Source: Patescibacteria group bacterium (GTDB lineage Bacteria > Patescibacteriota > Patescibacteriia > Patescibacteriales > JBAZCA01). Taken from it: 48,351 bases of DNA. Under the pieces are notes generated by a model. The model did no database searches and was not told where the DNA came from. It saw only the letters and a list, made by a program, of their open reading frames with translations. Numbering within the stretch: the first letter of the stretch is position 1; every line of letters begins with the position of its first letter. Below are positions 28,240 through 47,868 of this stretch, piece by piece. The stretch is from contig JBAZCA010000007.1 of NCBI GenBank assembly GCA_041671125.1, forward strand, positions 1 to 48,351, given 5' to 3'. The position numbers were made by a program, and so were the translations under genes.

Positions 28240-29211
28240 TTACTCACTTTTACCAAACATCCTTACGATTTTACTCGTTCCACCTTTATTAATAAGCTCA
28301 AGAAACAGCCCGGTCCAGGCCGAAACCTGAAAAGTCGCGAGGATGGCTCCGGCCAGGAAAAGAAGAGCCATAAAGCCCGCAAAACCGAGTAACGCAACCA
28401 GCCAAAAACCGGCGACTGACCCAAAATTAATGAAAATCGCCGCGAGAAAAAGAAAGGGCACGGACAAAACAAGAACGATGAAGATGGCGAGAAGACCGAG
28501 GGCAAAATTTATTAAAGTGAGAAGTAAAGCCATCTCAACACTAACGAGCCAGTTTTCTTTAAATAGTTTCCAGCCGTTTCCAAGGGCGGCAAAAAGCGGC
28601 TGGCCTTTTATGACCACGTAGCCGATTGAATATTTAATGATAAAAGAAATAAAAATTGAAACCGGAATGAGGATGATAAATAAAATGACATAAAGCGGCG
28701 CGGCAAGGCTGAGGCTAACGGCTATCGGAATAAGGAGTAAAATGAAAATTCCGGAAAAAATCAGCCGGTTAAATAAATTCAGGATAAAAACCGGCCAAAA
28801 ATTACTTATGCCCGACTGGAGCGTTTCGCGGAAAGCCGTCTTTTTATTCTGGATTATTTTAGCCGACGAATTTACTAAAGCCGCCTGGGAAATAATTACC
28901 AGCCAGACAAGAAAAACGCCGGCCGCCAGGGTTAATAGAAGGACGATGATGATAATGGAAAAATTTATCGGATCAGTGGCGGCGGTTCTGGCTACATTTC
29001 TCATTCCGTCCATGGTAAAAATTCCAGTATCTGCGAGAGTCCTTAGTCCGGGAAAAAGTCCGGCGCCTTCTTCATCGCCAAAAGTTTTAACAATGATTTC
29101 GTACTCTCCGCCGTTCCCTAAAAGAGCGGTAAAGAGGCCAAAAAACCAAAGGAACCGGAATTTCCAGGTAATTTCCCAGGCTTTTTTTATTATGTGGCGA
29201 TAAAAGGTCAT
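28240..29211 (-). CDS. hypothetical polytopic membrane protein
   Basis: 323-aa ORF with about 7 TM helices and the N-terminus ...AWEITWKFRFLWFFGLFTALLG. No catalytic motif recognised. Confidence 0.7.
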   Translation of the reverse strand: MTFYRHIIKKAWEITWKFRFLWFFGLFTALLGNGGEYEIIVKTFGDEEGAGLFPGLRTLADTGIFTMDGMRNVARTAATDPINFSIIIIVLLLTLAAGVFLVWLVIISQAALVNSSAKIIQNKKTAFRETLQSGISNFWPVFILNLFNRLIFSGIFILLLIPIAVSLSLAAPLYVILFIILIPVSIFISFIIKYSIGYVVIKGQPLFAALGNGWKLFKENWLVSVEMALLLTLINFALGLLAIFIVLVLSVPFLFLAAIFINFGSVAGFWLVALLGFAGFMALLFLAGAILATFQVSAWTGLFLELINKGGTSKIVRMFGKSE

Positions 29212-33040: not shown

Positions 33041-34042
33041 CTACTCCGCGCACCCGGCGTCCGCCGAACCTCCGGCCACGGTTCCTTCCCCGAAACCGGG
33101 AGCCGGACTGTCGGATGAAAGTTTTTCCTTGCATTCTTCCGGCGCGTTGTTAAAGCCGGCGCAGATAGTCGCCATCAAATCGGCCTGGCTCCGGCCGGAT
33201 TGGGCTTCGCCGCCGTTTACGATCAGGGTCGGTGAACCGCCTACCCCGTATTTTTCATTATCAGCCGCGTAAACTCCGAAGGACGGATAACTGCCTTTAA
33301 AATCAATCTTTCCATTAAATTTTTTCATGATTTCAAACTGGCTGTCAGTCTCGGCCGCGCAGGAAGCGACTTTCGCCAAATCAACTCCGGATTCTTTTAA
33401 GCAGGCTTCGCCGTTCCCTTCCTTTAAAAAACATTTTAAATAACTTATAAGCTTATTCGGTTCATTTTTCTGGACGCAATATTGGTTTAACTCTTCTTTA
33501 AGCTCTTTTTCGCCGTGCATGGCGTAATCGCAAAATTTCAATTTAAAATCAATCTTATCGCCGAGTTTTTCCACGACCGGGATTATGCCTTTTTCGATCT
33601 GAGTGCCGTAGGGGCAATGGCTCATGACAAAAAGCTCAACCACCGGCTTATCGCTCTTAGCAATATTAGCCGGAGCGGGCTCACTGGCCGCGGTATCCTC
33701 ATTCTCCGTATTGCCGGCCGCCTGGGCGCCTTCAACGCTTAAGGCCTGCGGGAAGAAAGTCTTCCCGTCCTTCGTAATGTAGGAATCAACCTTTTGCCCG
33801 TCGCCGAGATTAACCGAAAGCTTATAAAGCCCGTTTTCATCCACGATAGAATCAACCGTGGCTTTCCGACCCTGCATTAAATTTTCATTTATGTAAGTTT
33901 CCGCTTTGGCCTTAGCTTCTTCGGGCTTTAAAATTTTCGCCTTGGAGGATTTTAAATCCGCCAAGGAACAACCGGTTAAAACTAACGCTAACGCCATTGA
34001 TATCCCTCCGATTTTCGCCCATCTCGCAATGATTGTTTTCAT
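33041..34042 (-). CDS. secreted lipoprotein with a thioredoxin-like fold and a monothiol CPYG site (DsbA/GILT-like)
   Basis: 333 aa. The signal peptide has a lipobox (ALALVLTGC, Cys25). VVELFVMSHCPYGTQ sits where a CxxC motif would be in a thioredoxin fold. Nine further Cys residues lie in the C-terminal half. AAAGGAG lies upstream of the ATG. Confidence 0.65.
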   Translation of the reverse strand: MKTIIARWAKIGGISMALALVLTGCSLADLKSSKAKILKPEEAKAKAETYINENLMQGRKATVDSIVDENGLYKLSVNLGDGQKVDSYITKDGKTFFPQALSVEGAQAAGNTENEDTAASEPAPANIAKSDKPVVELFVMSHCPYGTQIEKGIIPVVEKLGDKIDFKLKFCDYAMHGEKELKEELNQYCVQKNEPNKLISYLKCFLKEGNGEACLKESGVDLAKVASCAAETDSQFEIMKKFNGKIDFKGSYPSFGVYAADNEKYGVGGSPTLIVNGGEAQSGRSQADLMATICAGFNNAPEECKEKLSSDSPAPGFGEGTVAGGSADAGCAE

Positions 34043-34348: not shown

Positions 34349-36967
34349 TTACACCCATGTCGTAGACGCGACTTTATCGCCTTTTTCTTTAAAGCGCATG
34401 AGGCGGACGCCCTGGGTATCCCGCCCAAGCTTCGGCACTGATTTAAACGGCAGGCGGATGACCTGGCCGCTCGCGGCAATAATGATCATGTCCTTATCGC
34501 TCATCTTTTCCTTATCCACAATAAAAGCGTTCACGATGTCTCCGGTTTTAGCCGTTACTTTGGCGGTCCTTATCCCTGACCCTCCCCGGCCCTGGATTTT
34601 AAAGAGATCCAGGGGAGAAACTTTTCCAAAACCGTTTTCCATGACAACGAGGGCCATGCTCTTTTTTAATTTTTCCTTGTCATTTTTTATCACTCCCATG
34701 CCGACAACGAGATCGTCTTTTTTAAGGCGGATACCCCTTACCCCGGCCGCTCCCCGGCCCATGTCCCGGACATCGGTTTCTTTAAACCTGATGGACTGAC
34801 CCTTAGCGGTTATGAGTTGGATTTCATCCTTGCCGCCGGTCGGCTTGGCCCAGATTAACCGGTCATCCGCGTTAATTTTTATGGCGATAAGGCCGGACCG
34901 GCGAACGTTAGCAAAAGCCGAAAGCTCTACTTTTTTAACCAGCCCTTTTTCCGTGGCGAAAAAAAGATATTTGCTTGACGTAATTTTATTTAACGGCAGG
35001 ATTGAGGTTACGCTCTCCGAACCTTCCAGCTGGAGGAAATTGACAATCGCCTGTCCTTTGGCGGTTCGGGCCGACTGGGGAATTTCATAGGCTTTGAGCT
35101 GGAACGCCCGGCCTTTGGTGGTAAAAAACAGTAGGTCGCTGTGGGTGTTGGTCATAAACATGAATTCCACCATATCTTCTTCTTTGGTCGTAAGGCCGAT
35201 TACGCCCTTGCCTCCCCGCGCCTGAGCCTTAAACGTATCGGGCGGCAGGCGTTTTATGTAGCCGTCGCGGGTCATCATCACCATGGTTTCCTCGTCCGGA
35301 ACGAGATCTTCCATCTTAAATTCCTTTATGTCGCCGGCGACAATGGCGGTTCTTCTCTCGTCGCGGTAATTTTCGTTTAATTCCTTTAATCCGTCCTTAA
35401 TAACGCCGCGAATTTTATTCTTTGACTTCAAAAGCTCTTCCAGTTCTTTTATGAGTTTTTTCTTATCCTTTAACTCGGTTTCAATTTTTAAGCGCTCGAG
35501 GTTAGCGAGCGTCGCCAGCTTCATTTCCAGGATGGCGATAGCCTGCCGTTCGGTCAGCTTGAATTTCTTTATGAGGTTAACCTTTGCCTCTTCGCGATCC
35601 TTTGACTTCTTTATGGTCGCGATCACCTCGTCAATTCTCGCCAGGGCAATCATTAAACCTTCTAAAATATGAGCCCGGTCTTTAGCTCTCCTAAGTTCAA
35701 ATTCAGTCCGGCGCCGGATTACAACTTCCCTATGCTTTATATATTCCTCAAGGATCATTTTGAGGTTTAAAACTTTCGGCTGGATGCCGTCCACGAGAGC
35801 GAGCATGTTAACGTGAAAGGTTTCCTGAAGCTGGGTCATCTTGTAAAGATTGTTTAAAATCTTTTTCGGGTAAGCGTCTTTTTTCAGTTCAATAACAACG
35901 CGGACGCCGTCTTTATCCGATTCGTCGCGCAAATCCCTGATGCCTTCAATTTTTTTGTCTTTTACCAGGTCGGCGATTTTTTCCACCAAAGTCGCTTTGT
36001 TAAGCTGGAAAGGAATTTCCGTGATTATGATCCTGAAACTCCCGCCCTTGGTTTCAACGATTTCGGCCCGGCCGCGGGTAACAATTCCGCCTTTGCCGGT
36101 CGCGTAAGCCTGTAATATATCCCGCCGGTTATAGATAATTCCGCCGGTCGGAAAATCAGGGCCTTTAATAAAAACCATAAGATCCTCAACCGTAGCGTCC
36201 GGGTTGTCTATTAGATGGGTTATCCCGTCAATCAGTTCGCCTAAATTATGCGGCGGGATATTAGTGGCCATGCCGACCGCGATGCCCATCGCTCCGTTCA
36301 TGAGAAGATTCGGCAGTTTAGCCGGCAGGACGCGGGGTTCTTTCTGTGATCCGTCGTAGTTCGGAACAAAATCCACCGTGTCCTTGTCTATGTCAAAAAG
36401 TATTTCTTCGGCGATTTTCGCCAGTTTCGCTTCGGTATATCTCATGGCCGCCGCCCGATCGCCGTCCATAGAACCGAAATTTCCCTGGCCTTTGATGAGC
36501 TGATAGCGCATGGAAAAATCCTGAGCCATCCGGACCATGGAATCATAAACCGCCACGTCGCCGTGCGGATGATATTTACCTAAAACTTCTCCGACGACGG
36601 TAGCCGATTTCCTAAATTTGGCGTTGGCGCGGAGCCCTAAATTCCACATGGCGTAAAGAATCCGCCGGTGCACCGGCTTTAAACCGTCCCGGACGTCCGG
36701 CAGGGCGCGGGCGACGATAACCGTCATGGCGTAATCCAGATAAGATTTTTCCATTTCCCTGACGATTGAATGCGGTTCAACCATGCCGTAAGCCGTTTCC
36801 ATCTTTTTTTCAATCACCAAAGAAGCCGCCGGTTTAACGCCGTTTTCTTTTTCAGCCGATCCATTTTCATCTTTCGCTTCCGGAGCCTTAGCTACTTCTT
36901 CATCATCCCTCTTTTTCGGTTTTTTAGCGGCTCCTGGCTCTTTATTTTTTTTAACATTCTTTGCCAT
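34349..36967 (-). CDS. gyrA: DNA gyrase subunit A with a charged N-terminal extension of about 55 aa
   Basis: 872 aa. Contains GKYHPHGD, the catalytic-Tyr motif [10 protein letters not shown] and C-terminal beta-pinwheel repeats. Confidence 0.98.
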
Positions 36968-37004
36968 ATTTATTTTTTTCTTTTTTTAGATTGATTCGCG
37001 CGAA

Positions 37005-37601
37005 TCAATTCCCCTCCAGCCTCTTTTCCAACTCCTCAATTTTTTTCCTTAATTCTTTTAAATCAACCTGCTCAGCTGACGCGTCAGTGGAACTGGCAAT
37101 TCCGCTTCCGGTTTCCGGGCTCGCCGCGTCATCGGACGGGGTACTGCTTGCCGCGCCGTCCGAAGGCAGGGTAGCCGGAGAACTCGTCGCGTTTTCTTCT
37201 CCGGCAATATTTTTTACTTCGCTAATCCCCTTTTTCGCCTCTTCCATGGATCGGGAAAAATTTTCCGAAATCTCTTCCCAGTTTAAATCGCTTCCCGCCG
37301 TTTCCGGCGCCGCTTTAAAAACGCTTTTTATATTAATGGCCCAGATTATAATTATCGCCAGCATAAAAAAAGTCACCCCGCTCCACATCACCAGCCGTTT
37401 ATTCCTTTCCACCTCTTCAGGCGCTACCGGGACTTCAAGCGGTTCCTCAAATTTAAGGTTCACGGCGTTAATTTTGTCTTTCATTACCTCTTCTTCCGGC
37501 GCGCGGCGGGTAACTTTCAGGCTTCTCTTTAACGGTTTTGACGCCTTTTGCGCCTTCTTCGCCCGGGTTTCTTTTTTTACCTCGTTTTTCCTCCTTGGCA
37601 T
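37005..37601 (-). CDS. hypothetical single-pass membrane protein
   Basis: 198 aa. Basic N-terminus, one TM helix (VMWSGVTFFMLAIIIIWAINI) and a Ser/Ala/Asp-rich region ending in a short coiled coil. The overlapping plus-strand ORF 36961..37614 has shadow-like S/F/L composition. Confidence 0.6.
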   Translation of the reverse strand: MPRRKNEVKKETRAKKAQKASKPLKRSLKVTRRAPEEEVMKDKINAVNLKFEEPLEVPVAPEEVERNKRLVMWSGVTFFMLAIIIIWAINIKSVFKAAPETAGSDLNWEEISENFSRSMEEAKKGISEVKNIAGEENATSSPATLPSDGAASSTPSDDAASPETGSGIASSTDASAEQVDLKELRKKIEELEKRLEGN

Positions 37602-37667
37602 AGTAAAAAATTAAAATATGAAAATCAAAATGTAAAATGACAATGCAAAATTCAAAAATTAATTTAT

Positions 37668-37775: not shown

Positions 37776-38423
37776 TTAAATTTTTAATATCACCAACTCC
37801 ATGTCCTCCTGCGGCAGATCCTTCTTGGAAATTTTCAGCTTTTCTTCTTCGGTCGGTTTAATCCCGAGTTCTTTGACGAATTTTTCCACCCCGTCTATAT
37901 CGGTAATTTTTCCGCCGGCGGTTTTATAGTGCATCGGAATAACGATCCGCGGTTCAATCTGGTTAATTACTTCAACGGCTTTTTTCGCGTCAATCGTGTA
38001 TTTGCCACCGACCGGGATCATGAGAATATCGCACTTGCCGATTTTTTCCAGCTGTTTATCGGTTAAGACATGCCCGAGGTCGCCGAGATGGACGATAGCG
38101 ATCCCTTCCATTTCCATCCAGTAAATTATATTCCGGCCACGTTCAGCGCCTTCTTTTTCGTCGTGATGCGAATCAATCCCTTCAATGGAAATTCCTTTAA
38201 CGTCGTATTCACCGGCCGCGTTTATTATAAAAGGCTTGCCGCGCAGGGCGTCCGCGTTATTATGGTCATGGTGGCCGTGGCTAACCGTAACGATGTCCGC
38301 CTCAAAGTTCGGCACTTTAAAACCGGTATTAGCGTCAAAAGGGTCGGTAACGATAGTGATCGCGTCCGGACCGGTTTTATCCTGAATTTTAAAGCATGAA
38401 TGTCCGAGCCAGGTGATATGCAT
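37776..38423 (-). CDS. metallo-beta-lactamase-fold hydrolase (UPF0173-like)
   Basis: 215 aa. MHITWLGHSCFKI... and VTVSHGHHDH (HxHxDH motif). Confidence 0.85.
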   Translation of the reverse strand: MHITWLGHSCFKIQDKTGPDAITIVTDPFDANTGFKVPNFEADIVTVSHGHHDHNNADALRGKPFIINAAGEYDVKGISIEGIDSHHDEKEGAERGRNIIYWMEMEGIAIVHLGDLGHVLTDKQLEKIGKCDILMIPVGGKYTIDAKKAVEVINQIEPRIVIPMHYKTAGGKITDIDGVEKFVKELGIKPTEEEKLKISKKDLPQEDMELVILKI

Positions 38424-38561: not shown

Positions 38562-38589
38562 AATATAGCAGATTGGAGAGGGATGTCAA
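38562..38589 (-). promoter_or_regulatory. candidate sigma70-like promoter downstream of the giant ORF
   Basis: Minus strand reads TTGACA-16 nt-TATATT, abutting the hairpin at 38535-38561. Confidence 0.4.
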
Positions 38590-38609
38590 CGTGAAAAATC
38601 CTTAAAATT

Positions 38610-41600
38610 TTACCAAACACGGGGCTCCGGCGCTCTGGACGATATAGAAGGAGTTGATGGCCTTGGCGCCGGATTTTCGGGAACAGTTTTTGCCGCCACG
38701 GGCGCTTTGCGAAAAATTGATCTCGTTCCAGATTGTCCCTCCGCAATAACAGGTTTATTAATATTTCCACGATTAGCATCTTGCGGACTGCCTCCCATGA
38801 CTTTAATTTTTTCATTTGTCCATTTCATCACTTCGTCTATGTTTGTCGGGTTTAACTTATACGGCCCCTTTTCCCCTAGCCTTCCTTCCAGTTCGCTTTT
38901 ATCAAGAATCCAGCCGGAAGGATGGCGCACGTCAATGCTTTTCGGCCCGAGAACGATCCGCGCGCCTTTATGGTCTACTAATAGAGTTCCATCAACCGAA
39001 GGCGCGACTTTTTCAGGAAGACGATCTAAGCCTAAAAGATCGGCTACGCCCTTTTTTACCTGTCCGTCGGAAAATTTTCCGGCAAAAACCTTGAGATAAG
39101 CTCCGGCTTTGCCTTCAGCTCTAAATATATCTTCGGGCATTTCCCGGTAAGCTTTCAGCGTCGCCGTTTCCCCGAAAGACACTCCGGATTTTTCGGCCAG
39201 TTCGCAATAATTCCTTATCAATCCGGGCTTACTGACCGGGAAGATGTCTTTGTTATCAATCCAAACTTTAAGTCTTAGCCCTTCCGCCTTGCTAAACCCG
39301 TCCCAAATATTTATTCCCGCCCGGTAAAGAGTATCAGGAGTAAACGCGGCCGGATCAACGTCGCTTTTGCCGGCTTTAACTATTTCCTTAATCGCGTCAT
39401 CAATCACGGTTTCCTTCATCTCTACCGACTTATCAAATTCATATTTAACCTGATTGGCGAAATTGCCGACATTCTGATCACCCGCCCTGACAAGTCCTTT
39501 TTCATCCCGGTAAATTTCCATTATCTCGCCGTCTCTGTTTATCACTTGCGCCACATCCGCGTCGCCATCGCCGTTTTGATCTATTATCCTTAACCTAAGG
39601 CCGTATTTATTATCAAAGTCAACTTCTATTTTTCGCGCGCCCTTTCCTTCCGGCCACTGGGGCTTTCTGATCAGTTCCTCAATATCGCCCGGCTTCCCGG
39701 CTTTACCAGCCTGCTCTAAAACATGCGCTCCGGTTTTCCCCCGGCCTGAAGGATGTTCAATTCCGGCGCGGCCAGCCGCTATATCCGTTTCCTTAATACC
39801 CATGGCTCGCTCTCTAGCGCTTAGATGCCTGCCGTCCCCTCTCATCCCGGCGCCGTGCGCTTTCTCATGACCAAAATCTTTTATTTGCTCCGGCTTTATT
39901 TCATCATGCCCGGCAACTTTTTCTTCCAGCCCTTCGGCTTTTACGATTTTTTCCCAGATTCCTTTTTTTATGTTTCCTAAATATTTCCCGGCTCCTTTTT
40001 CCAATTTTCCTTCCTTCCAAAGTTCATCGGCGTGAGCTTCCAGTCTTCCGGCTAAAGCGTTAAATTTTTCATGATTAATAATTTTCAATTCATGAGTCTT
40101 AGGGTTCCAGCTTAAAATTTCTTTCAGATCTTCCGGCTTTATTCCGGCCGTTCCTTTGCCTTCCGCGAGCCGGACGAGATTAGCCGCTATGTTTAGGCTT
40201 TTCGCGCCTTCCTCATCGCCGAAAATATTATCCTGACCGAGGACATTTTTCATATGGTCAACGGCCATCATCTGGAAAGTCCGCTCCAATTCAACCGGGG
40301 TTTTGCCTTTGCCTAAATTCAGGGCAAAATTTTCTTTAAGACCTCTTTTTTCGGGAGTTGGAAGCGGTTCAACTCTTCCGGACGCGCTTTGCGGTTCGGA
40401 GGAAACGTGAGTAACGGGTTCTTGCGTTACAGCGGAAGGAGTAATGGGTTGTTCCGGGCGTTGCGAACTAGCTTCCGGACTTTCCGGCCGCAGTCGCGCC
40501 GCTGGTTCGGTCGGCGCGGCCGGTTTAACCGTTTTAGGCGCGTATATATGACGCTTTATAAACGGCTTTCCCTCGGGCGAAGACGGCCTGATAAACTTAT
40601 CAAATTCATGAAAATACCTGGGTAAATTTTCCCATAATTTCATCGCCGTAAACCCGGCTGTCTCAAGAGCCACTCCCCCGGTTACGGCTCTTCCGGCTGT
40701 GCTTAAATATCGCATTCCCATGGCCAAAGCGTCAACGGTTCCGTATTGGGAAACCATGCGATCCAGATCCTCCAGGTGGCTAGAATATCTGCTTAAAATT
40801 GCTTCTTTGCGTAACTCCTTTTCTTCCGGACTAATATCTTTTTGCTGTTCCACTTTATCCAGTTGGCGAATAATTTTTTCCGCCGACCTTTGCAGGTCCC
40901 AATGCATTAATCTTTGAACGCCGCGCATCACTAATCCGGAAGAATTTTCAGCCAGCGGCTCGCTTTCCAGCCGATCAAGAATATCTTTTGGCATTTCTTT
41001 TTGGTAGGCCTTTTTAAGGTCTTCCAGCGTAACTTCATTTTTTCCGGCTTTGGCTTTATTATATATATTCCAGGCTTCATCCATGGCAAAATCAATATCG
41101 TGAATCCTGGTCTTATCCATTGCTTTCTCGCTGTTTAATTCAGCTTCTTTTATCGCCTCCGCTCCCTGCGCGAAAAACATGCCTCCCATCATTACATATC
41201 TCAAAGGCATGAGGGCGGTGTAACCCGCGACATCGCCGACAACTCTTGCTGTTTTTATAACGTTAGAAGAAACATAACCGGCGTTAGAAACGGACAGTAA
41301 GTTAGACTCTTTTCCCGCGAAAAACCGGCCTCTTCCTTTTAACCCTTTTCCTTTGCGATTTTTCCTTAGCTCGTCCAGAGTTTCCATTTTTCCCCTGGCC
41401 GAATTAGCGTTTTTAGAATAGCTCTCGCCCATGGCATAGAGAAATCTAACCATCTTATTCTCCGAAATTATCTTCTTATCCTCTTTGCCTTTGGATAGTT
41501 TTTTAGCTAATCCCTTTAAACTCTTGGCGAAAAAGTTATCCGTTTTTTCTTCAACGTGAAAACCAAGATTCAATATAGCCCGGCCTACCTTTCTTAATTT

Positions 41601-44600
41601 TTCCGGCTTCATGCCCTTAATTTCTTCTTCAATCTTTTTTTCTTCTTCGATCCGAGCGTCTGTTTCTCCCGCTTCTTTTAATTCATTTTCCAATAATTTA
41701 ATTCTTTCCCTGGTTTCCTGAAGTTGGAGCTGATAATCCGCTAACTCCGCTTCCAATTCTTTTATCTGCCTGTCTATTTCTCTAATATTTTTTTCTTTTC
41801 CAGGAATCTCTTTCTTTTCTTTTTTCTTTCTGGATTTTTTTAATAAATTTATTTCTTCCAATAACGCGACTCTTTCCGCCTTTATATTATTTAAGCTCTT
41901 GCTTAAATTTTCTTCCTTAATCGCTAGCTCGCTTTCCTGTTTTCTCGCTTCTTCCAGTTCGGCTGAAATTTCATCAGCTTCTCTTACTATTTCATCCAGC
42001 CCAATAAGCTCCTCTTCCTTTTCTTTCGATTCTTCCCTCTCTTCGGCCTCGCGCAGTTCTTTATCCAGTTTCCTTATTCTGGCTGTCTGCGCTCTGATTT
42101 GCGCCTCAATATTAAAAACTTCACTCTCTGGGGAGCCATCTATTTTATCAAATAATTCTTTTTCCAAAGCCACGGCCTCGCCGCGTTCTTTCCTGATTCC
42201 TTCAGCAGTCCTTAAAACCGGCGCGTCCGGCTCCCCTTCGCTCGCTGGCGCGACCTCCGATTCCAAGGTTTCTTCCTCAGGTTCTCTGGCAGGCTCTAAT
42301 ACTTCCGATCCGGTCGGCGGCGTTTTTTGCGAAGCTTCCGAGTTCGGCAGTTCCGCGGCCGCGGACTCCCCGGCCTCCGCCTCGTTCACAATCGGCGCCC
42401 TGGAGTTTCTATGCCGTAAAGTTTCCACTATATAGGCAGTGGTTTTCTCCACCAAAAATTTTCTTCTTTCCGCGCCATTCACGCGATAAAAATCCAAAGC
42501 TTCATTAATTATTTCTTCTAGCCTAACCCCGGTTTGCTCTTCATCCGGCAAAAGTAAAAATTTACTGCTCGCCATTTTATCCACATTCATTTCTTCCAAA
42601 TCTCTCCTTATTATTTCGTCCCTTTTGGCAAAAACCTCAGCAGGCGAAATAGGAGCTTGTTCTGCCGCCTCGTCCGCAACAGGCGCTTCACCGGCTAAAC
42701 CCGGAGTGATTAATCCATCCGACGGTTCAGCTCTGCCGGTAGTTTCTACTTTTGCCGCAATCTCTTGAACCCTGGCTCTACTCGCCGCTCTTTTTTCCAG
42801 CTCTTTAACGACTAACTCCTTTACCCTTGCCTGAATAATATCTATATCTTCGGCCGTAATTCCGATCCTTGCCCACTCGGGAACAGAAGACCAATAATAA
42901 CCTGATTTAGTTAAAAAATCATCTATCTCTTCTTTATTAACTTTATCATCTTTCGCCTTTTCTAAAACATAATAATACTGGCTGATATTCGTTCTCACTA
43001 ATAATCGTATTATTTTTTTAACTCTTTCCGCTTTCATCTCGGGCGTTAATTCTTCTAATAAGTTTCTTTCTTCTTCAAACAATTTTACCACTTCCAGCTT
43101 TGCCAATTCTATTTCCGCGTCCGTTACTTTTAAATTTTCAAACTTATTATTATACCTGCCTGTAGTGACGGCAAGATCAGAAATGGCTATTTCTAATTCT
43201 TTCTTTGTTTTAATCTCTGTTCCTATTCCTAAATGTGATTCTTCAAAATTCAATGAAGCGCGCACGCTCCTGGCTAGATCGGCTATTACTTCCCGCCTCG
43301 GCGCTTTCTCTTCCGCTTTGGAGGTAAACGCCGCGATCCTTTGATTAAGATCACTAAGAACAACCGTTTCCGCCCTGGCGGAACCGGCTTCGTTATCAAA
43401 AGATTCTTTAATGGCCGCGACCCCGGCCGCCTCGTTGTAGTCAACAACCTGAAAAATATGTTTCCCGGGCAATTCTTTGCCGTCTCCCAGATACTCGCCA
43501 TATTGATCAGCAAACTCTTCTTGAGATAATAGTTTTACGCCTCTCTCACCGGCCAATCTTTCGGCCGCGTCCATTCTCACGGCTCCTCTTCCTATCCAAT
43601 CTTTCCTGATTCCTTCAGGCGTAATATTATAGACCGTTTCGCTGTAATTTTGATCTTTAAATACCGGAAAAGAGTAATATCCGTCTTCTTTGTGCTGTGA
43701 TTTATATTTTTCCTCATAATAGTAATAAAAACACCGGCCGATTACCATCGTTTCAAATTGACCGCCGCCGTCAAAAGCATTCTCCCAGATCACATATTCC
43801 GTCCCCGGCGGGCCGAATTCTTTTTCAAGGCTTTCAATCATCTCATCATCCTTCTTTTTCGTTTCCGGATCTTTTTGCCGGTCTTCCATAATCTTCTCGC
43901 CGTAATCTTTATGCTTTTTTCTCAGTTCTTCCAGTTCCGGCAACGTGATTTTAGAAGTCCCATATTCACCATCTTTAAATTTGCTTGACTCATTAATAAT
44001 GATAGCCATGCCTGTTTCCGGCTGATATTCAAGTATTTGAATCCAACTTCTATCTTCGTCTTTAATGTTCGCTTCCTGGTCAAAAAGCATATGCCCCATG
44101 GGATGCCTGATTGCGAATTCTTTTAAAGTCGGGAATCTCGACTCTGACTCCGCCTTTTTCTCATCCGTGGCCTTACCTAATAAAGCGCCTTCTTTCGCCG
44201 CTCCCGCTTCCGGCTCAGGCTCAGGATCTTCCGCTGCCTTTTCTCCCTTCTTTTTCTCTATCAAATCCCCGACAAGCTTTTCAAATTCTCTTTTAAACTT
44301 TTCCGCCGCTCTTTTCCGCCCATCGCCTCCGGTATCGCCGCCCGCGAGGTGTCTGGCGATTTCACTAGCAGTTATTAAATGCGCGTCAACCAATTTTCCT
44401 TTATCATCCCTGACATTAATCGCTTGTTCGGCCGCCCAAATATTACTAAAAATTTCTTCCTCGTTCATGCCATCAAATTCGGGTCTCCAGTATTTATCCG
44501 GGTTTCTCCTGAAATCCTGCAATAACACGGCTTTTACCCTTTCCGTTCGGGCGAATGGAAGCGTTGACGCACTTCTCTTCTGATCAATGCCCGACTCCTC

Positions 44601-45077
44601 GCGTGATTCTTCTTTTTCCGCACCCCACGACTTTTTTGAGTTCTCAATCATCTTCTCCTGTTTTTGATAAAAATCATCTAAACTTTTTAATGCTCCTGCG
44701 ATTATTATTTTTAAATCATTAAGCTGCTGATTTTTGTCCTCCCCCGATTCTACTGACTCACTTTCAAGAATCTCCTTCATTTTTTCTAAACGATCATTTA
44801 TGTGTTTCCAATATTTTTGGCTTTCCTTCATCATCTCAATATTAGACTTTTTCACGTCCTCCTCTATTGCTCTTAATTGTTCCTCATTATACCTATCCGA
44901 ATTGCTCAAATTTTCAAAAAATTCTTTTTTCTCTATATATAAATAAATCTGGGCGGTGTCAATCGCATCAAATAAATCACTTATTAAAGTCTGAATTTCT
45001 TCAGAATTAATAGCATCAAGCCGTTTTTCCGTCTCCGGCGTCCAAACCGGTTTTAATTGTTCCTGTTCACTTCCCAT
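38610..45077 (-). CDS. giant 2155-aa protein of unknown function (coiled-coil rich, no recognised catalytic domain)
   Basis: Uninterrupted 6468-nt ORF on the universal coding strand. ATG at 45075-45077 preceded by AGGTGA with a 9-nt spacer, and TAA at 38610-38612. The composition is protein-like throughout. See the findings for the architecture read from the translation. Confidence 0.85.
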   Translation of the reverse strand: MGSEQEQLKPVWTPETEKRLDAINSEEIQTLISDLFDAIDTAQIYLYIEKKEFFENLSNSDRYNEEQLRAIEEDVKKSNIEMMKESQKYWKHINDRLEKMKEILESESVESGEDKNQQLNDLKIIIAGALKSLDDFYQKQEKMIENSKKSWGAEKEESREESGIDQKRSASTLPFARTERVKAVLLQDFRRNPDKYWRPEFDGMNEEEIFSNIWAAEQAINVRDDKGKLVDAHLITASEIARHLAGGDTGGDGRKRAAEKFKREFEKLVGDLIEKKKGEKAAEDPEPEPEAGAAKEGALLGKATDEKKAESESRFPTLKEFAIRHPMGHMLFDQEANIKDEDRSWIQILEYQPETGMAIIINESSKFKDGEYGTSKITLPELEELRKKHKDYGEKIMEDRQKDPETKKKDDEMIESLEKEFGPPGTEYVIWENAFDGGGQFETMVIGRCFYYYYEEKYKSQHKEDGYYSFPVFKDQNYSETVYNITPEGIRKDWIGRGAVRMDAAERLAGERGVKLLSQEEFADQYGEYLGDGKELPGKHIFQVVDYNEAAGVAAIKESFDNEAGSARAETVVLSDLNQRIAAFTSKAEEKAPRREVIADLARSVRASLNFEESHLGIGTEIKTKKELEIAISDLAVTTGRYNNKFENLKVTDAEIELAKLEVVKLFEEERNLLEELTPEMKAERVKKIIRLLVRTNISQYYYVLEKAKDDKVNKEEIDDFLTKSGYYWSSVPEWARIGITAEDIDIIQARVKELVVKELEKRAASRARVQEIAAKVETTGRAEPSDGLITPGLAGEAPVADEAAEQAPISPAEVFAKRDEIIRRDLEEMNVDKMASSKFLLLPDEEQTGVRLEEIINEALDFYRVNGAERRKFLVEKTTAYIVETLRHRNSRAPIVNEAEAGESAAAELPNSEASQKTPPTGSEVLEPAREPEEETLESEVAPASEGEPDAPVLRTAEGIRKERGEAVALEKELFDKIDGSPESEVFNIEAQIRAQTARIRKLDKELREAEEREESKEKEEELIGLDEIVREADEISAELEEARKQESELAIKEENLSKSLNNIKAERVALLEEINLLKKSRKKKEKKEIPGKEKNIREIDRQIKELEAELADYQLQLQETRERIKLLENELKEAGETDARIEEEKKIEEEIKGMKPEKLRKVGRAILNLGFHVEEKTDNFFAKSLKGLAKKLSKGKEDKKIISENKMVRFLYAMGESYSKNANSARGKMETLDELRKNRKGKGLKGRGRFFAGKESNLLSVSNAGYVSSNVIKTARVVGDVAGYTALMPLRYVMMGGMFFAQGAEAIKEAELNSEKAMDKTRIHDIDFAMDEAWNIYNKAKAGKNEVTLEDLKKAYQKEMPKDILDRLESEPLAENSSGLVMRGVQRLMHWDLQRSAEKIIRQLDKVEQQKDISPEEKELRKEAILSRYSSHLEDLDRMVSQYGTVDALAMGMRYLSTAGRAVTGGVALETAGFTAMKLWENLPRYFHEFDKFIRPSSPEGKPFIKRHIYAPKTVKPAAPTEPAARLRPESPEASSQRPEQPITPSAVTQEPVTHVSSEPQSASGRVEPLPTPEKRGLKENFALNLGKGKTPVELERTFQMMAVDHMKNVLGQDNIFGDEEGAKSLNIAANLVRLAEGKGTAGIKPEDLKEILSWNPKTHELKIINHEKFNALAGRLEAHADELWKEGKLEKGAGKYLGNIKKGIWEKIVKAEGLEEKVAGHDEIKPEQIKDFGHEKAHGAGMRGDGRHLSARERAMGIKETDIAAGRAGIEHPSGRGKTGAHVLEQAGKAGKPGDIEELIRKPQWPEGKGARKIEVDFDNKYGLRLRIIDQNGDGDADVAQVINRDGEIMEIYRDEKGLVRAGDQNVGNFANQVKYEFDKSVEMKETVIDDAIKEIVKAGKSDVDPAAFTPDTLYRAGINIWDGFSKAEGLRLKVWIDNKDIFPVSKPGLIRNYCELAEKSGVSFGETATLKAYREMPEDIFRAEGKAGAYLKVFAGKFSDGQVKKGVADLLGLDRLPEKVAPSVDGTLLVDHKGARIVLGPKSIDVRHPSGWILDKSELEGRLGEKGPYKLNPTNIDEVMKWTNEKIKVMGGSPQDANRGNINKPVIAEGQSGTRSIFRKAPVAAKTVPENPAPRPSTPSISSRAPEPRVW

Positions 45078-45261
45078 ATTTAGATTTCACCTGGTTAATC
45101 TTATTAAATCCCCTCAATTTTGCCTTTATCGCCTTATCCCTCTTTTTTATTATCTCATCAATTCTTTTCAAATATTCTAAGTGAGCTTTTTTCAATTCTT
45201 CTGCCAGCCCTAAAAACTCATCCGCTCTTTTTATCTTAATTTTTCTGTTAGTGTCTTTCAT
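45067..45261 (-). CDS. 64-aa basic coiled-coil protein whose stop overlaps the giant ORF start
   Basis: MKDTNRKIKIKRADEFLGLAEELKKAHLEYLKRIDEIIKKRDKAIKAKLRGFNKINQVKSKYGK. It overlaps the giant ORF by 11 nt (AAATATGGGAAGTGA). It starts 30 nt after the ftsK stop and has no obvious SD. Confidence 0.45.
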   Translation of the reverse strand: MKDTNRKIKIKRADEFLGLAEELKKAHLEYLKRIDEIIKKRDKAIKAKLRGFNKINQVKSKYGK

Positions 45262-45291
45262 GCGGCAATTATATTTTTACCCTATTTTTTT

Positions 45292-47868
45292 CTACTTCGC
45301 AAAATACATCCCGTCATCATCGTCCTCATCTTCCGCGCGTTTCTCATTATTATCATCAGGCGCTGGAGCGGTGCCTGCGGTCTTCTTTTTTCGGGAAATT
45401 TTTTCTAAAGCGTCTTCCGGCTCTTCATCGTCTTCGTGCAAATCATCAACCTCTTTTATCTCTTCCTTGCTGTATCGGATTTTTTTCTTCGCCGATTTTT
45501 TCGCGCCCGGCCTGCCAGTATCGTTATCATCGTCTTCCGCGTCCTCATCATCCGCGTCCTCATCACCTTCATCTTCCTCATTCTCGTCTTCATTATCTAT
45601 GCTACCCGGTAAATATTCATCCGGCGCGACCGCCTCGTCGCGGTTATGCAGGGACACACCGGACACACCGGTTTCAATCATACCTTCGTATTGTTCCCGG
45701 GAAACCATTATTTCTCTCGGCTTTGAACCGTTACCCGGACCGACAATGCCGTTTTCTTCAAGTAAATCTATGAGTTTGGCCGCCCGCGAATAGCCGACCG
45801 AAAGCCGCCTTTGCAGAAGCGAAGTTGACGCCCGGCCCATGTTAATAACGATTTCCTTTGCTTCTTCAAAAAGATCATCCGAATCAGCGTCTCCGCCGGA
45901 CATCCCGGCTCCGCCGATGCCTTTGACTTTTTGCCGGTCGGTGATGCCTTCAATATAGTTAGTTTCCCCGCCGTTTTCTTTTATGTAGCGGACGATTTTT
46001 TTAATTTCATTATCCGAGACGAAAGCGCCCTGGATCCGTTTTGGCTTTGATAACTCAGCGGTAACGAAAAGCATGTCTCCGGAGCCTAAAAGTTTTTCCG
46101 CGCCGAGCGAATCTAAAATAGTCCGCGAATCAATACTGGACGCGACGGAAAAAGCGATTCGGGCCGGCATATTGGCTTTAATCAGGCCGGTAATAACGTC
46201 AACGCTCGGCCGCTGGGTGGCGAGGATTAAGTGAATCCCGACGGCCCGCGCCATCTGCGCGAGGCGGATAACCGCGGTTTCAACGTCCCTGGCCGCCACT
46301 ACCATTAAGTCAGCCAATTCATCAATAATAAAAACGATATAGGGCATTTTTTCGTATTTGTCTTTGGCCGATTCGTTGTAAGACTGGATGTTTCTTTTGC
46401 CATGCTTAGCCAGCTCGTCAAACCGCCGGTCCATTTCATTCAGGCACCATTTTAAAGCGTTAATGGTTTTATCAACGTTAGTTATAACCGGGGTTAAAAG
46501 ATGCGGGATGCCATTATAAATCGGGAGTTCCACCCGCTTCGGATCAACCATAATAAAGCGCAGGTCGTCAGGATTATTCTGGTATAGAAGGCTGACGATT
46601 ATAGAATTAAGGCAGACCGATTTTCCCGAATTGGTCGCGCCAGCGACTAGAAGGTGCGGCATCTTAGGGATATTGTAAGTCCAGGGCTTACCCGAAACAT
46701 CCTTGCCTAGACCGATATAGAGGTTAGCTTTTCTTTCTTTAAATTCTTTTGATTCTAGAACCTGCCGGAGACCGACAATGGCCTTAGTCTGGTTCGGCAC
46801 TTCCACCCCGACTAATGATTTTCCCGGAATCGGCGCTTCTATCCGAATCGGATGCGCCGCTAAAGCCAAGGCCAGATCATTTCCTAAAGTCGTAATTTTC
46901 GCGAGCTTAATCCCCTCGGCCGGCTTAAAAGTATACTGGGTGACGGTCGGCCCGACTGAAACTTCTCCCATGCCGACGGCAATGCCGAAATTCTTTAAGG
47001 TCCGCTCTATTACCTCGGCGTTATTTTTTATATCACCGCTCATCGGCTTAGTTATCTTATCCGAAAGTAAATCTAAAGGCAGGTCAATTTTAACATGGCT
47101 CGTTTTCCAGGGCTTTTCCTCTTCTTTGGCTTTTAATTTTTTCGCGTCCAGAGCCGGATTAATTTTTCTCGCGCTGAATTCGGTTAGCGCGGAAATTTCC
47201 TCTTCGGCTGTTTCGTCTTCGGGTTCGGTTTCTTCCGGCTCATTTTCCGCTTTCTCCCCGTTTTTGCGCCTCGTTATAAAAGCTAAAGCCCGGCTTATCC
47301 CGGACCAGGCTTTGGCAAAAATACTATCGCTTCCAATAATCGCGCTTAAAGTCGTATCAAAAACCAGCATGAGAGATATGATTATTAAGCTGATAACCAA
47401 AATTATCGCGGCCCATAACCCTAGAACGCGCGTAAGCCCGAGGCCCATAAAATACCCGAGATAGCCTCCGCCCCGACCCTCTTCCAGCGCGGCTTTCCAT
47501 TCATCCCGGCCGATAAAAAGCTGGAACATAGCTTCCATGGCAACGACAAATAAAAAAAGGCCGAGGTAATTTGAACCGCGGATATGGTATTTTTCCGAAG
47601 CGTAAAGAAGATAGCCGAGCCCGAGTAACGCGAGCGGCAGCATGAATTTTCCCCAGCCAAAAACATAAGTCAGCCCTTTAGCGTAATAGATCCCGAGACT
47701 GCCGGCCAAATCAAAAAGGCTTAGGACGCCGATTGCGCCGAGCGTGAGTATTATGACGATATAGATGCCTTTTTTCGTCGCCGGATCAAGGTCCATTGAC
47801 GGCATAGACGGCAGGCCCGGCGAATAAAGCCGGTTAATGAGTTTTCTTTTTCTTCCTCTTCTGGCCAT
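45292..47868 (-). CDS. ftsK: DNA translocase FtsK/SpoIIIE with an acidic C-terminal tail of about 100 aa
   Basis: 858 aa. N-terminal TM helices, Walker A GATNSGKSV, Walker B FIIDELADL and a gamma-domain-like winged helix (LLQRRLSVGYSRAAKLIDLLEENGIVG), followed by an Asp/Glu-rich tail. Confidence 0.95.
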   Translation of the reverse strand: MARRGRKRKLINRLYSPGLPSMPSMDLDPATKKGIYIVIILTLGAIGVLSLFDLAGSLGIYYAKGLTYVFGWGKFMLPLALLGLGYLLYASEKYHIRGSNYLGLFLFVVAMEAMFQLFIGRDEWKAALEEGRGGGYLGYFMGLGLTRVLGLWAAIILVISLIIISLMLVFDTTLSAIIGSDSIFAKAWSGISRALAFITRRKNGEKAENEPEETEPEDETAEEEISALTEFSARKINPALDAKKLKAKEEEKPWKTSHVKIDLPLDLLSDKITKPMSGDIKNNAEVIERTLKNFGIAVGMGEVSVGPTVTQYTFKPAEGIKLAKITTLGNDLALALAAHPIRIEAPIPGKSLVGVEVPNQTKAIVGLRQVLESKEFKERKANLYIGLGKDVSGKPWTYNIPKMPHLLVAGATNSGKSVCLNSIIVSLLYQNNPDDLRFIMVDPKRVELPIYNGIPHLLTPVITNVDKTINALKWCLNEMDRRFDELAKHGKRNIQSYNESAKDKYEKMPYIVFIIDELADLMVVAARDVETAVIRLAQMARAVGIHLILATQRPSVDVITGLIKANMPARIAFSVASSIDSRTILDSLGAEKLLGSGDMLFVTAELSKPKRIQGAFVSDNEIKKIVRYIKENGGETNYIEGITDRQKVKGIGGAGMSGGDADSDDLFEEAKEIVINMGRASTSLLQRRLSVGYSRAAKLIDLLEENGIVGPGNGSKPREIMVSREQYEGMIETGVSGVSLHNRDEAVAPDEYLPGSIDNEDENEEDEGDEDADDEDAEDDDNDTGRPGAKKSAKKKIRYSKEEIKEVDDLHEDDEEPEDALEKISRKKKTAGTAPAPDDNNEKRAEDEDDDDGMYFAK

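Follow-up and report, generated by a model that had tools for sequence, protein, structure and literature searches.

The giant gene at 38610..45077 on the minus strand of the window, this being the whole stretch of 48,351 nucleotides of Patescibacteria DNA that was analysed, may be an accessory gene that varies between strains and encodes an unusually long protein of an unnamed Patescibacteria family. Its product is tentatively explained, with a probability of about 40%, as an accessory cytoplasmic coiled-coil protein, probably membrane-tethered, whose arms are exchanged by recombination.

Identification of the gene and its locus

The ORF (2155 aa plus stop, from the ORF list and its translation) begins with ATG and is unbroken over 13.4% of the window, as the sequence-only reading had stated for this 6468-nt frame (about 13%). 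Two features speak for the assigned start: an AGGTGA motif at 45087-45092, 9 nt upstream, and the similar N-terminus of the allele found in the related locus L028. The protein is acidic (net charge -59) and contains 2 Cys. As that reading had also held, neither a hydrophobic N-terminus or signal peptide (composition and hydropathy) nor a Walker A motif was found in it; tandem and internal repeats were likewise not found. The two modules that it had placed at residues 300-600 and called weakly similar are not similar, BLASTP giving E=2.3 and tile-versus-tile BLAST nothing.

An artefact, either a chimeric assembly or a non-genic long open frame, was considered on account of the metagenomic origin of the DNA and of the contigs Ga0209016_1002152 (L025/L029), Ga0074197_1002670 (L026) and Logan L030, which end inside the equivalent gene. 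However, the identical 2155-aa product is encoded on four or more contigs that come from different samples and pipelines (ENA and Logan were the places shown, and the listed sources also included NCBI and JGI), and 2155 stop-free sense codons at 45% GC cannot be chance. Hundreds of homologues also exist, as does a 2049-aa allele that is full-length and begins similarly, and module A, the helical core described below, is under purifying selection (dN/dS ~0.12 against the L025/L028 allele). This selection and the identical copies across assemblies establish a real coding gene, not a misassembly, and the artefact is effectively refuted.

Canonical FtsK (858 aa; 45292..47868, minus strand; Pfam FtsK_4TM, FtsK_alpha, FtsK_SpoIIIE and FtsK_gamma) is the upstream neighbour on the same strand, so that the position downstream of ftsK given previously was correct, with a Lys-rich, helical ORF of 64 aa (45067..45261, minus strand) in between. 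This small ORF lies 30 nt from ftsK, overlaps the ATG of the giant ORF by 11 nt and has no Pfam match. A 53-aa counterpart (first 31 aa 55% identical, E 2e-8) precedes the 2049-aa allele in L028; the small ORF is not conserved ahead of other family members. Directly past the stop of the giant ORF, a promoter-like site (TTGACA, 16-nt spacer, TG, TATATT; 11/12 matches; 38562..38589, minus strand) falls within a 65-nt block conserved with the relative L027 and presumably serves the downstream MBL-fold gene. The remaining genes of the window are housekeeping ones (ATP synthase, GroEL, MetRS, FtsH, S1, GyrA), as had been described, and no secretion-system genes were found in it near the giant gene.

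Relationship to a Patescibacteria protein family

The protein had been called an orphan, which proved to be wrong: residues 1200-2155, searched exhaustively with HMMER, matched 377 protein clusters at E<=1e-3, 143 of these at E<=1e-30, the match lying in modules A and B. Module A was present in ~135 of the 153 fetched homologues and module B in 37, some carriers of the latter being devoid of module A. The named sources were mainly Patescibacteria / Paceibacterota / Parcubacteria MAGs; the exceptions were three contigs, probably mis-binned. These similarities assign the centre of the giant protein to a large unnamed family specific to Patescibacteria (Paceibacterota/Parcubacteria). Its hypothetical proteins (P0002-P0154; e.g., Candidatus Paceibacterota WC694_02650, P0154) share with the giant module A, at E-values down to 1e-102, often module B and rarely module C. 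They also have the same domain order, which consists of a variable acidic/coiled-coil arm, the module A core, a linker rich in Pro and Ser, and C-terminal globular modules that are interchangeable, and as in the giant there is no signal peptide, an N-terminal hydrophobic stretch or signal peptide being present in 0 of 147 members. The family has a median length of ~920 aa, and the giant differs from the rest in an extra N-terminal arm of ~900-1000 residues whose homologues are confined to its own allele group.

No significant match for the giant protein, including its search as eight tiles, was obtained in Pfam, NCBIfam, PHROG, PADLOC or PDB sequences, and its earlier description as unassignable and without a recognisable domain stands. 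For the family, neither a Pfam or NCBIfam model nor a studied member was found, and no relatives were found in phages, plasmids or IMG/VR contigs. A characterised family across the protein, which the sequence-only reading had left as a possibility, did not emerge, since profile, sequence and Foldseek (PDB and BFVD) searches gave no significant match and no characterised function follows from homology or fold.

The context of the giant (ftsK / small ORF / gene / MBL) also differs from the usual one of the family, which in ~11 loci is LysM-M23 peptidase (divergent) / family gene / UvrD / KsgA; neither ftsK nor the MBL-fold gene nor gyrA flanks any of 19 other family loci. In ~11 genomes the usual context is conserved and housekeeping-like, which argues, against the accessory reading, that the gene may be a core one in its ordinary form of ~900 aa.

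Architecture of the giant protein

All the following coordinates are on the minus strand. The acidic helical N-terminus (residues 1-167; 44577..45077), defined by composition, has 24% identity to the L028 allele by BLASTP and is followed by a conserved island (residues 168-284; 44226..44576) with 70% amino acid and 80.6% nucleotide identity to that allele, not found in 153 other family members. For the hypervariable block at residues 285-938 (42264..44225) no homologue was detected: it has no nucleotide or amino acid similarity to the L028 allele, no family member covers it, no phage matched it, and a word-indexed protein search with residues 170-830 gave no match. The E/K/L-rich heptad coiled coil reported at residues ~960-1160 (41598..42200), which runs into module A, was confirmed by composition and by a heptad scan, the pattern being heptad-like over ~984-1146 (segments 984-1017, 1024-1068 and 1093-1146); the helices predicted by AF2 begin at residue 1126.

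Module A (residues ~1130-1500; 40578..41690) is the all-helical core that defines the family, delimited by family conservation and AF2, with long helices of pLDDT 65-93 and the motif SPLRYVMMGGMFFxRGAEAAKEARLKNEEVIEKTRI..D...AAEEAW.IY, together with QYGTVD..A. Within it, hydrophobic segment 1 (residues 1276-1306; 41160..41252) is a helix / GYTxxxP turn / helix hairpin, predicted by AF2 as a helix-loop-helix at low confidence, in which R1278, D1282, P1291 and R1293 are each kept in 89-96% of family members. Hydrophobic segment 2 (residues 1447-1482; 40632..40739) starts a 47-residue helix after an invariant G1446 / D1449 turn. F-BAR domains (PSTPIP1, 7aam; Hof1, 4wpe; syndapin, 2x3v), likewise elongated bundles of very long helices, headed the Foldseek list for module A. 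They were rejected as not significant (E 0.4-2, probability <=0.38, TM-scores 0.07-0.25, rmsd >30 Å) and reflect the all-helical shape only.

The Pro/Ser/Glu-rich linker (residues ~1497-1578; 40344..40589) has 17 Pro per 100 aa and is predicted to be disordered (pLDDT <50), in keeping with the earlier description. The ~570-aa C-terminal globular region of that description is instead composite, made up of module B and, beyond a disordered linker, a small beta unit of low confidence and a helical domain. Module B (residues ~1579-1735; 39873..40343) is a compact α/β domain with pLDDT >95 in two independent AF2 runs, for which Foldseek found no fold match in PDB or BFVD, and it has no invariant acidic or His residues. 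The small beta unit (residues ~1816-1865; 39483..39632), with AF2 strands of low pLDDT (44-64), carries the DxNGDGxxD loop already recognised, located by motif scan as a single, Ca-loop-like DQNGDGDAD at residues 1833-1841. Module C (residues ~1889-2050; 38928..39413), a helical domain with a small sheet (pLDDT 77-96), is common to only four fetched homologues (P0006, P0018, P0050 and P0083). The Pro-rich tail, also noted before (residues 2106-2155; 38613..38762), is part of a conserved backbone flank.

The two hydrophobic segments previously pointed out are present but only weakly hydrophobic, their best 19-residue Kyte-Doolittle means being 1.05 and 0.86, and they lie where the protein is most conserved, with nearly invariant charged residues (R1278, D1282, R1293 and D1449) within or beside them. 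The equivalent of segment 2 reaches 1.6-1.7 in some family members, and members lacking module A have at the same position Pro-centred, Arg-flanked Gly/Ala segments with values up to 2.1. Both flanks of the pair are basic, with a net charge of +8 ahead of segment 1 and of +5 behind segment 2. Because of the low hydrophobicity and the near-invariant charges, the segments of module A could instead lie buried inside a soluble helical bundle, as its core.

Strain variability and mosaic structure

The gene fills a strain-variable slot (38600..45291, no strand assigned) reaching from the ftsK stop to the MBL-gene promoter and delimited, with exact breakpoints, by blastn against L027, in which similarity stops at window position 45292 and restarts at 38599. 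The slot measures 6.7 kb in the window and 2.07 kb in L027, and three relatives have three different contents. That of L027, whose GyrA and FtsH are 96 and 94% identical to those of the window, is an unrelated pair of 579 and 70 aa. In L028 the slot next to ftsK holds the 53-aa and 2049-aa pair, a mosaic of the window's pair, in a relative with a GyrA also 96% identical. Conservation of the small-ORF and giant pair beside ftsK, a point raised by the sequence-only reading, is thus seen in L028, and the giant is absent from the slot in L027. Since a relative with a 96% identical GyrA holds an unrelated pair there, this comparison indicates that the giant gene is dispensable at the ftsK-MBL locus.

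Against the L028 allele, nucleotide identity is 91% in module A (dN 0.033 and dS 0.275 against L025/L028), 96.8% in the tail block from residue 2118 into the intergenic region (tail dS 0.28), and 71% in module B, where synonymous sites are saturated; residues 1857-2117 show no nucleotide similarity. Synonymous divergence of the C-terminal domain from the other allele is also saturated, alignment in the most divergent blocks being unreliable, and dS is 0.55 for the flanking MBL gene and 0.83 for GyrA. The blocks of the gene differ greatly in evolutionary age, which indicates recombination, as judged from two other alleles of the locus and five mosaic pairs elsewhere in the family. P0058 (with an alternative hydrophobic module) and P0152 (with module A) are 96% identical over a C-terminal half of 448 aa, which suggests that their upstream modules are interchangeable; other family pairs are likewise half-identical and half-unrelated. 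A scaffold confined to the cytoplasm is not usually hypervariable, and this counts against the explanation that we favour.

Possible functions

In the favoured explanation the entire protein would stay on the cytoplasmic side, and module A would anchor it at the membrane through the Pro-kinked hydrophobic hairpin and the second hydrophobic helix with their basic flanks. The N-terminal arm of ~1100 residues and the linker-tethered C-terminal domains would then act as long-reach interaction surfaces for partners varying by strain, and such differences between partners would account for the exchange of whole blocks. The likeliest role would be that of a membrane-tethered scaffold or tether with variable ends selected for diversity, through conflict with phage or another cell or through strain-specific partner recognition. 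EzrA, TolA, MapZ and DivIVA-type proteins are bacterial membrane-anchored coiled-coil scaffolds. The giant resembles them as a long helical cytoplasmic protein with a candidate membrane tether, adjoining ftsK and having a disordered linker to a terminal globular domain. However, it has no sequence or profile similarity to them, its candidate anchor is central rather than N-terminal, and its gene is missing at the locus of a close relative and is mosaic between strains.

A polymorphic toxin, effector or anti-phage defence protein, whose variable C-terminal domain would be delivered or regulated by a helical carrier region together with a small helical partner, was judged highly improbable. LXG toxins are substrates of type VII secretion that have small helical partners and need an FtsK/SpoIIIE-type ATPase. 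The giant likewise lacks a signal peptide, has a helical N-terminal half and recombining variable blocks, C-terminal ones included, is co-inherited with a small helical ORF upstream, occupies a variable slot and adjoins an FtsK-family ATPase, as other family genes adjoin TrwB/DUF87 ATPases in L006 and L008. Nevertheless, this neighbour is an ordinary FtsK with one motor and a gamma domain, not of EssC/EccC type; LXG, WXG100, toxin, nuclease and immunity domains and PADLOC matches were not found in these searches; variability extends beyond the C-terminus to the N-terminal half; no acidic or His residue of module B is invariant; and the downstream gene is a conserved MBL-fold one with its own promoter-like site rather than a variable immunity gene. 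An exported or surface protein that makes contact with a host or partner cell, or is a target of phage, and leaves the cell without an N-terminal signal is doubtful, the cassette-like hypervariability and ancient allelic blocks typical of recognition and conflict proteins being what fits the earlier host or partner proposal. The giant size, the acidic composition with 2 Cys and the one Ca-loop-like motif agree with it, and proteins >1500 aa are reported to be surface-targeted preferentially in other Patescibacteria (PMC13059738). The very large surface proteins of Absconditicoccaceae, which resemble the giant in exceeding 1500 aa in a reduced genome, nonetheless have adhesion domains and either signal peptides or TM domains (PMC13059738). 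In the giant no signal peptide, N-terminal TM or adhesion domain was found, the 147 family members also lack such N-terminal signals, and adhesin, Ig, cadherin and RTX repeats were not found. With two candidate membrane segments, an even number, both ends would come to lie on the cytoplasmic side, and the absence of nearby secretion-system genes and of phage, plasmid or IMG/VR relatives likewise speaks against export.

A membrane-tethered coiled coil that works with FtsK, organising the septum or linking nucleoid and divisome, is improbable, and the giant probably does not belong to the core division machinery. The sequence-only reading was right to see a long coiled coil and a possible membrane-association module; the ftsK-based division role that it proposed is little supported. 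The canonical ftsK lies directly upstream on the same strand, 30 nt and the small ORF away, the pair beside it recurs in L028, and the family has suggestive neighbours: the LysM-M23 peptidase in ~11 loci, FtsW two genes away in L008, DivIC and VanY in L003, and recurrent DNA-handling genes (UvrD, UvrB and TrwB/DUF87-type ATPases). Against this, ftsK was near 0 of 19 other family loci, L027 carries its unrelated pair in the slot, wholesale block replacement between strains is unexpected for a core divisome part, and no similarity was found to EzrA, DivIVA, ZipA, SepF or any Pfam division family. Small genomes are rich in informational and envelope genes, so that neighbours of this kind are likely to occur by chance.

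The giant gene and its neighbours

The gene encoding the giant (38610..45077, minus strand) starts with ATG and is an uninterrupted ORF of 2155 aa that takes up 13.4% of the window, close to the 13% first read from the sequence. An identical 2155-aa product, with ENA, Logan, NCBI and JGI among its sources, was found on four contigs, and an origin by one-off misassembly was therefore ruled out. All sizeable window genes are carried by the minus strand and the GC skew is negative across the whole window (1-48351), with an extreme of -0.29 at 41-46 kb which coincides with the giant's purine-rich E/K codons. As had been proposed, the window is otherwise made of housekeeping genes, among them those for FtsK, GyrA, S1, FtsH, MetRS, Sua5, TatD, F-type ATP synthase and GroEL. 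The tRNA, rRNA and Rfam scans of these 48 kb gave zero matches.

The location immediately downstream of ftsK was confirmed. The ftsK gene (45292..47868, minus strand) is canonical, with 4TM, alpha, motor and gamma domains, and a small Lys-rich ORF of 64 aa (45067..45261, minus strand) lies between both genes with an 11-nt overlap at the giant's ATG. An AGGTGA motif is placed 9 nt 5' of this ATG. The 30-nt spacer from the ftsK stop to the small ORF (45262-45291, minus strand) holds a perfect TATAAT 7 nt before the small-ORF ATG and no obvious Shine-Dalgarno motif; the transcript may be short-leadered or leaderless. The giant is followed by an MBL-fold gene (37776..38423), by a gene for a 198-aa unknown protein and by gyrA. 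Since a strong promoter-like site (38589..38562, 11/12 matches) was identified 3' of the giant's stop, the giant is probably the last gene of its transcription unit. The 198-aa protein (37005-37601, minus strand) is 72% identical to its orthologues, its neighbours reaching 94-96%, and gave weak sub-threshold NCBIfam matches only (sll0565 family; Mbov_0395 pilin-like). Its gene is overlapped by an opposite-strand 217-aa ORF at 36961-37614.

A modular family of Patescibacteria

The sequence-only reading had taken the giant for an orphan protein. However, an exhaustive HMMER search with residues 1200-2155 revealed 377 homologous clusters (50%-identity representatives) at E<=1e-3; 335 of them remained when the limit was set to E<=1e-10, and 143 when it was set to E<=1e-30. 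Word-indexed searching returned, among the matches listed, only the giant itself when the whole protein was used, 8 matches with the conserved core, against the 377 clusters of the exhaustive search, and zero with residues 170-830. A scan of genome contigs for exact giant peptides gave zero matches, and the genome loci of the family were retrieved by a contig scan with a trimmed motif alignment.

Modules were defined by mapping the full giant onto 153 fetched homologues. Module A, the all-helical core (residues ~1130-1500) which holds both hydrophobic segments, is present in about 135 of them. Module B, an α/β domain (~1570-1750), occurs in 37, of which 18 also have module A and 19 lack a full one, while module C, a C-terminal helical domain (~1815-2060), is found in only 4. 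None of the 153 covers residues 1 to ~875 and the median length of the family is ~920 aa, so the giant is a family member extended by a very long N-terminal arm. The 14 module-A signature residues R1278, D1282, P1291, R1293, K1310, E1311, T1323, R1324, D1327, W1336, Y1339, P1363, G1446 and D1449 are all in the giant, and across an alignment of 125 members the conservation of each lies between 84 and 100%. The possibility that proteins with only module B carry a cryptic module A was rejected, as only the truncated fragments P0007 and P0102 hold part of it.

The labels of 15 out of 18 genome loci read Patescibacteria, Paceibacterota, Parcubacteria, Nomurabacteria, Saccharibacteria or plain 'bacterium', and the named sources of the family are MAGs designated 'Candidatus Paceibacterota', 'Parcubacteria group', 'Patescibacteria group' and 'Nomurabacteria'. 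The other three (L007, L019 and L024) are labelled as Gammaproteobacteria, Burkholderiales and Arenimonas MAGs; these contigs are probably mis-binned. The window GyrA clusters with 'Patescibacteria group bacterium', and no family members were found in phage records, plasmids or IMG/VR contigs. Judged by these records, the family is restricted to Patescibacteria chromosomes. The gene is real, and the protein it encodes is a very large member of a modular, uncharacterised family specific to Patescibacteria.

Protein anatomy and comparison with known families

The giant is acidic (407 D+E versus 348 K+R), has 2 Cys and begins with a hydrophilic N-terminus, which agrees with the absence of a signal peptide initially noted; the family as a whole is without signal peptides. 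Most of the architecture first read from the translation was recovered: heptad-like stretches extend across residues 984-1146 within the coiled coil placed at ~960-1160, the Pro-rich linker covers residues 1497-1578 and was predicted as disordered by AlphaFold2 (residues 1475-1575), the DxNGDGxxD loop is a single isolated DQNGDGDAD at residue 1833, no Walker A motif ([AG]xxxxGK[ST]) occurs anywhere, and no adhesin-type tandem repeats were detected in the DNA, within the protein or as Pfam repeat domains. Conversely, the two similar modules suggested at residues 300-600 were not supported (BLASTP E=2.3) and an internal duplication was discarded there; the two hydrophobic segments proved weak, with best 19-residue Kyte-Doolittle means of 1.05 and 0.86.

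AlphaFold2, run with family alignments, predicted module A as all-helical with long helices (pLDDT 65-93, falling to ~50-60 across the first hydrophobic hairpin). In two independent runs module B came out as a compact α/β domain, its pLDDT exceeding 95. AlphaFold2 also predicted a second disordered linker at residues 1740-1814, a low-confidence beta unit containing the DQNGDGDAD loop and a helical domain at residues 1889-2050 (pLDDT 77-96).

The reading of the giant as unassignable held up, with zero Pfam matches for the whole giant, eight tiles and eight homologues, and zero NCBIfam matches for the whole giant. Among the known anti-phage defence systems of PADLOC, 0 families reached E<=0.1 when the giant, the small ORF and the two downstream genes were queried. 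PHROGs gave nothing significant (a lone match at E=0.56), and PDB sequence searches with the giant and two family profiles only coiled-coil noise. Foldseek detected nothing at E<=1e-3 in PDB (both models) or in BFVD. Its top rows for module A were F-BAR domains at E ~0.4 (best 0.42) with TM-scores of 0.10-0.21; no significant superposition on F-BAR or BAR domains resulted, and the rows reflect an elongated helical shape only. Unlike EzrA-like and other named division scaffolds, the giant has neither a Pfam/NCBIfam match nor an N-terminal TM anchor; it differs from SMC, Rad50 and MukB-type ATPases in having no Walker A motif and no Pfam match, and from RTX and type I secreted adhesins in lacking tandem nonapeptide or Ig/cadherin repeats beyond its one DQNGDGDAD. 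LXG and type VII substrates are likewise set apart, as neither the giant nor the small ORF has an LXG or WXG100 Pfam match, and the window's FtsK, which combines a single motor domain with FtsK_gamma and FtsK_4TM, is not an EssC/EccC-type multi-domain ATPase. Literature searches retrieved no such named family. No relationship of the giant to a characterised family or fold was detected.

Module A and the membrane

In the conservation map, built from the 125-member alignment, the most conserved positions of module A are charged or structural. R1278, D1282, P1291 and R1293 surround the first hydrophobic hairpin, in which a GYTxxxP turn joins two helices, and the KEARLKNEEVIEKTR.D stretch, W1336, Y1339, P1363, G1446 and D1449 of the QYGTVD turn, and K1463 are also among the most conserved. 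The net charge is +8 in the flank preceding segment 1 and +5 in the one following segment 2, with an acidic stretch of 140 residues separating the two segments; this arrangement of basic flanks and acidic loop would fit a membrane hairpin whose two ends are cytoplasmic. In family proteins devoid of module A, the corresponding position is taken by Gly/Ala-rich segments that are centred on Pro, have Arg on their flanks and reach a hydropathy of 2.1. P0058, which has this alternative hydrophobic module, and P0152, which has module A, are 96% identical over their C-terminal half only (448 aa), and for this reason the upstream modules look interchangeable. In addition, a hydrophobic segment at the N-terminus is absent from all 147 family members that start with Met. 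From the basic flanks, the TM-like segments of relatives and the hydrophilic N-termini we infer that the giant would be cytoplasmic and membrane-tethered via module A. However, the hydropathy of both segments is low for a membrane hairpin and charges are conserved inside them, so that a soluble helical bundle is a live alternative for module A.

A strain-variable slot and the mosaic structure of the giant

Looking up the GyrA cluster mates yielded two genomes with the window's gene backbone, L027 (JGI Ga0376277_0001407) and L028 (ENA k141_241620). L027 has the same gene order over ~20 kb and its GyrA, FtsH, MBL and FtsK are 95.9, 94, 94 and 86% identical to those of the window. The giant is missing from it: nucleotide similarity stops exactly at window position 45292 and resumes at 38599, and the L027 slot, from the ftsK stop to the MBL promoter (L027:6532-8596), holds a 579-aa E/K-rich coiled-coil ORF and a 70-aa helical ORF. 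Neither has similarity to the giant or a module A, and the 579-aa protein was rejected as a divergent family member. This pair of a large coiled-coil and a small helical ORF may have a function analogous to that of the pair in the window. Upstream of its ftsK, L027 carries a RhuM-family gene and a gene for a 1171-aa beta-helix protein (L027:1-3686).

L028 has a complete giant of 2049 aa, preceded by a small ORF of 53 aa that shares 55% identity with the window's small ORF over its first 31 aa (E 2e-8). Four further contig records, corresponding to three distinct contigs (L025/L029, L026 and L030), are fragments of the L028-type allele. All of them end inside the N-terminal variable half (L025:1, L026:1, L029:1 and L030:1), where assemblies tend to break. 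At another locus, masked or unknown bases were seen in the ORF just upstream of the family gene (L012:4682-5470).

Comparison of the giant with the L028 allele by blocks revealed nucleotide identities of 80.6% at residues 171-284, 84% at 939-963, 92% at 1018-1050, 91.3% at 1118-1538 (module A), 70.8% at 1558-1784 (module B), 69.6% at 1819-1856 and 96.8% from residue 2118 through the stop codon to part of the spacer, with none detectable at 285-938 and 1857-2117. Nei-Gojobori estimates were dN 0.033 and dS 0.275 for module A and dN 0.166 and dS 0.28 for the tail, with synonymous sites saturated in module B (pN 0.24, pS 0.77) and the C-terminal domain (pN 0.45, pS 0.79); the flanking MBL and GyrA genes gave dN 0.040 and 0.025 and dS 0.55 and 0.83, respectively. 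The low dN/dS of module A shows a functional gene. That blocks of very different age occur within one gene indicates recombination between divergent alleles and not relaxed constraint alone. Pairs of family proteins that are half identical (71-96%) and half unalignable include, besides P0058/P0152, P0003/P0140 (82%, module A only), P0009/P0151 (71%, N-terminal 360 aa only) and P0120/P0139. Thus, the giant is accessory at the ftsK-MBL locus and its blocks recombine; the slot (38600..45291) appears from these alignments to be a recombination hotspot.

Possible role of the giant

Hypothetical proteins are common in patescibacterial genomes. In these tiny genomes, 6.5 kb are nevertheless spent here on a gene unexplained by curated libraries or solved structures. 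What looked like a singleton is now a definable family of hundreds of clusters, and two of its domains, which have no known relatives, can be folded with confidence; this gives a concrete basis for defining a new domain and for structural work. A conserved core beside synonymous-saturated blocks, together with the slot swap in a sister genome, shows that family ends are exchanged by recombination, and such a mosaic is a mark of recognition or conflict genes. To our knowledge, these are almost wholly undescribed in the uncultivated episymbiont Patescibacteria. The newness lies in the undetected relationship to characterised families or folds; no new mechanism is claimed. The definable family and the clear cassette exchange are testable leads, and the ftsK-MBL slot is a practical marker of strain-level variation in the clade.

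Our preferred, still tentative reading (probability about 0.4) is that the giant is a membrane-tethered variable scaffold, in which module A would tether it to the cytoplasmic membrane face and the N-terminal arm and head domains would act as strain-specific interaction surfaces. A division role with FtsK would agree with the envelope and division neighbours that recur across family loci, but it is weakened by the replacement pair in the L027 slot and by the lack of family-wide ftsK synteny. The hypervariability would also fit a surface or host factor; however, the export signal is absent, and the very large proteins of other Patescibacteria are reported to be mostly surface-targeted with adhesion domains (PMC13059738), neither of which the giant has. 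A toxin or defence protein finds no domain support. Beyond the scaffold reading of this one protein, we consider it unlikely that Patescibacteria hold an undescribed class of modular, recombining intracellular proteins, with a membrane-tethering helical core and exchangeable arms and heads, which by cassette shuffling at a hotspot beside ftsK would diversify recognition of phage, host or mobile DNA from the cytoplasmic membrane face, modules A and B being new folds.

Genomic context across the family

The pairing of small ORF and giant beside ftsK, whose conservation had been raised as a question, is kept in L028 and absent from 19 other loci. In none of these 19 distinct loci do window neighbours such as ftsK, the MBL gene or gyrA lie within 6-8 kb of the family gene, and family-wide synteny with ftsK was discarded. 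The small upstream ORF is likewise kept within the giant's allele group only. About 11 Paceibacterota loci (L005, L012, L016, L017, L019-L024) share a conserved block around an ordinary family gene of ~600-1150 aa, in the order CCA-adding enzyme, YraN, divergent LysM-M23 peptidase, family gene, UvrD-type helicase and KsgA. Elsewhere the family gene is 5' of UvrB and near DivIC and VanY, two genes from FtsW, adjoining DnaE, or between EF-G and EF-Tu. At two loci (L008:2095-5183 and L006:10744-13943) it adjoins a TrwB/T4SS-coupling/DUF87-type ATPase of the FtsK-HerA superfamily. A 103-aa DUF5663 protein lies between both genes in L008, an arrangement that echoes the window order FtsK, small ORF, giant.

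Finally, three other conserved, uncharacterised proteins of the window are encoded at 26124-27788 (554 aa, zero Pfam matches), 28240-29211 (323 aa, weak DUF7544 match) and 33041-34042 (333 aa, weak thioredoxin-like matches), all on the minus strand, and are 86-92% identical to their L027 orthologues.
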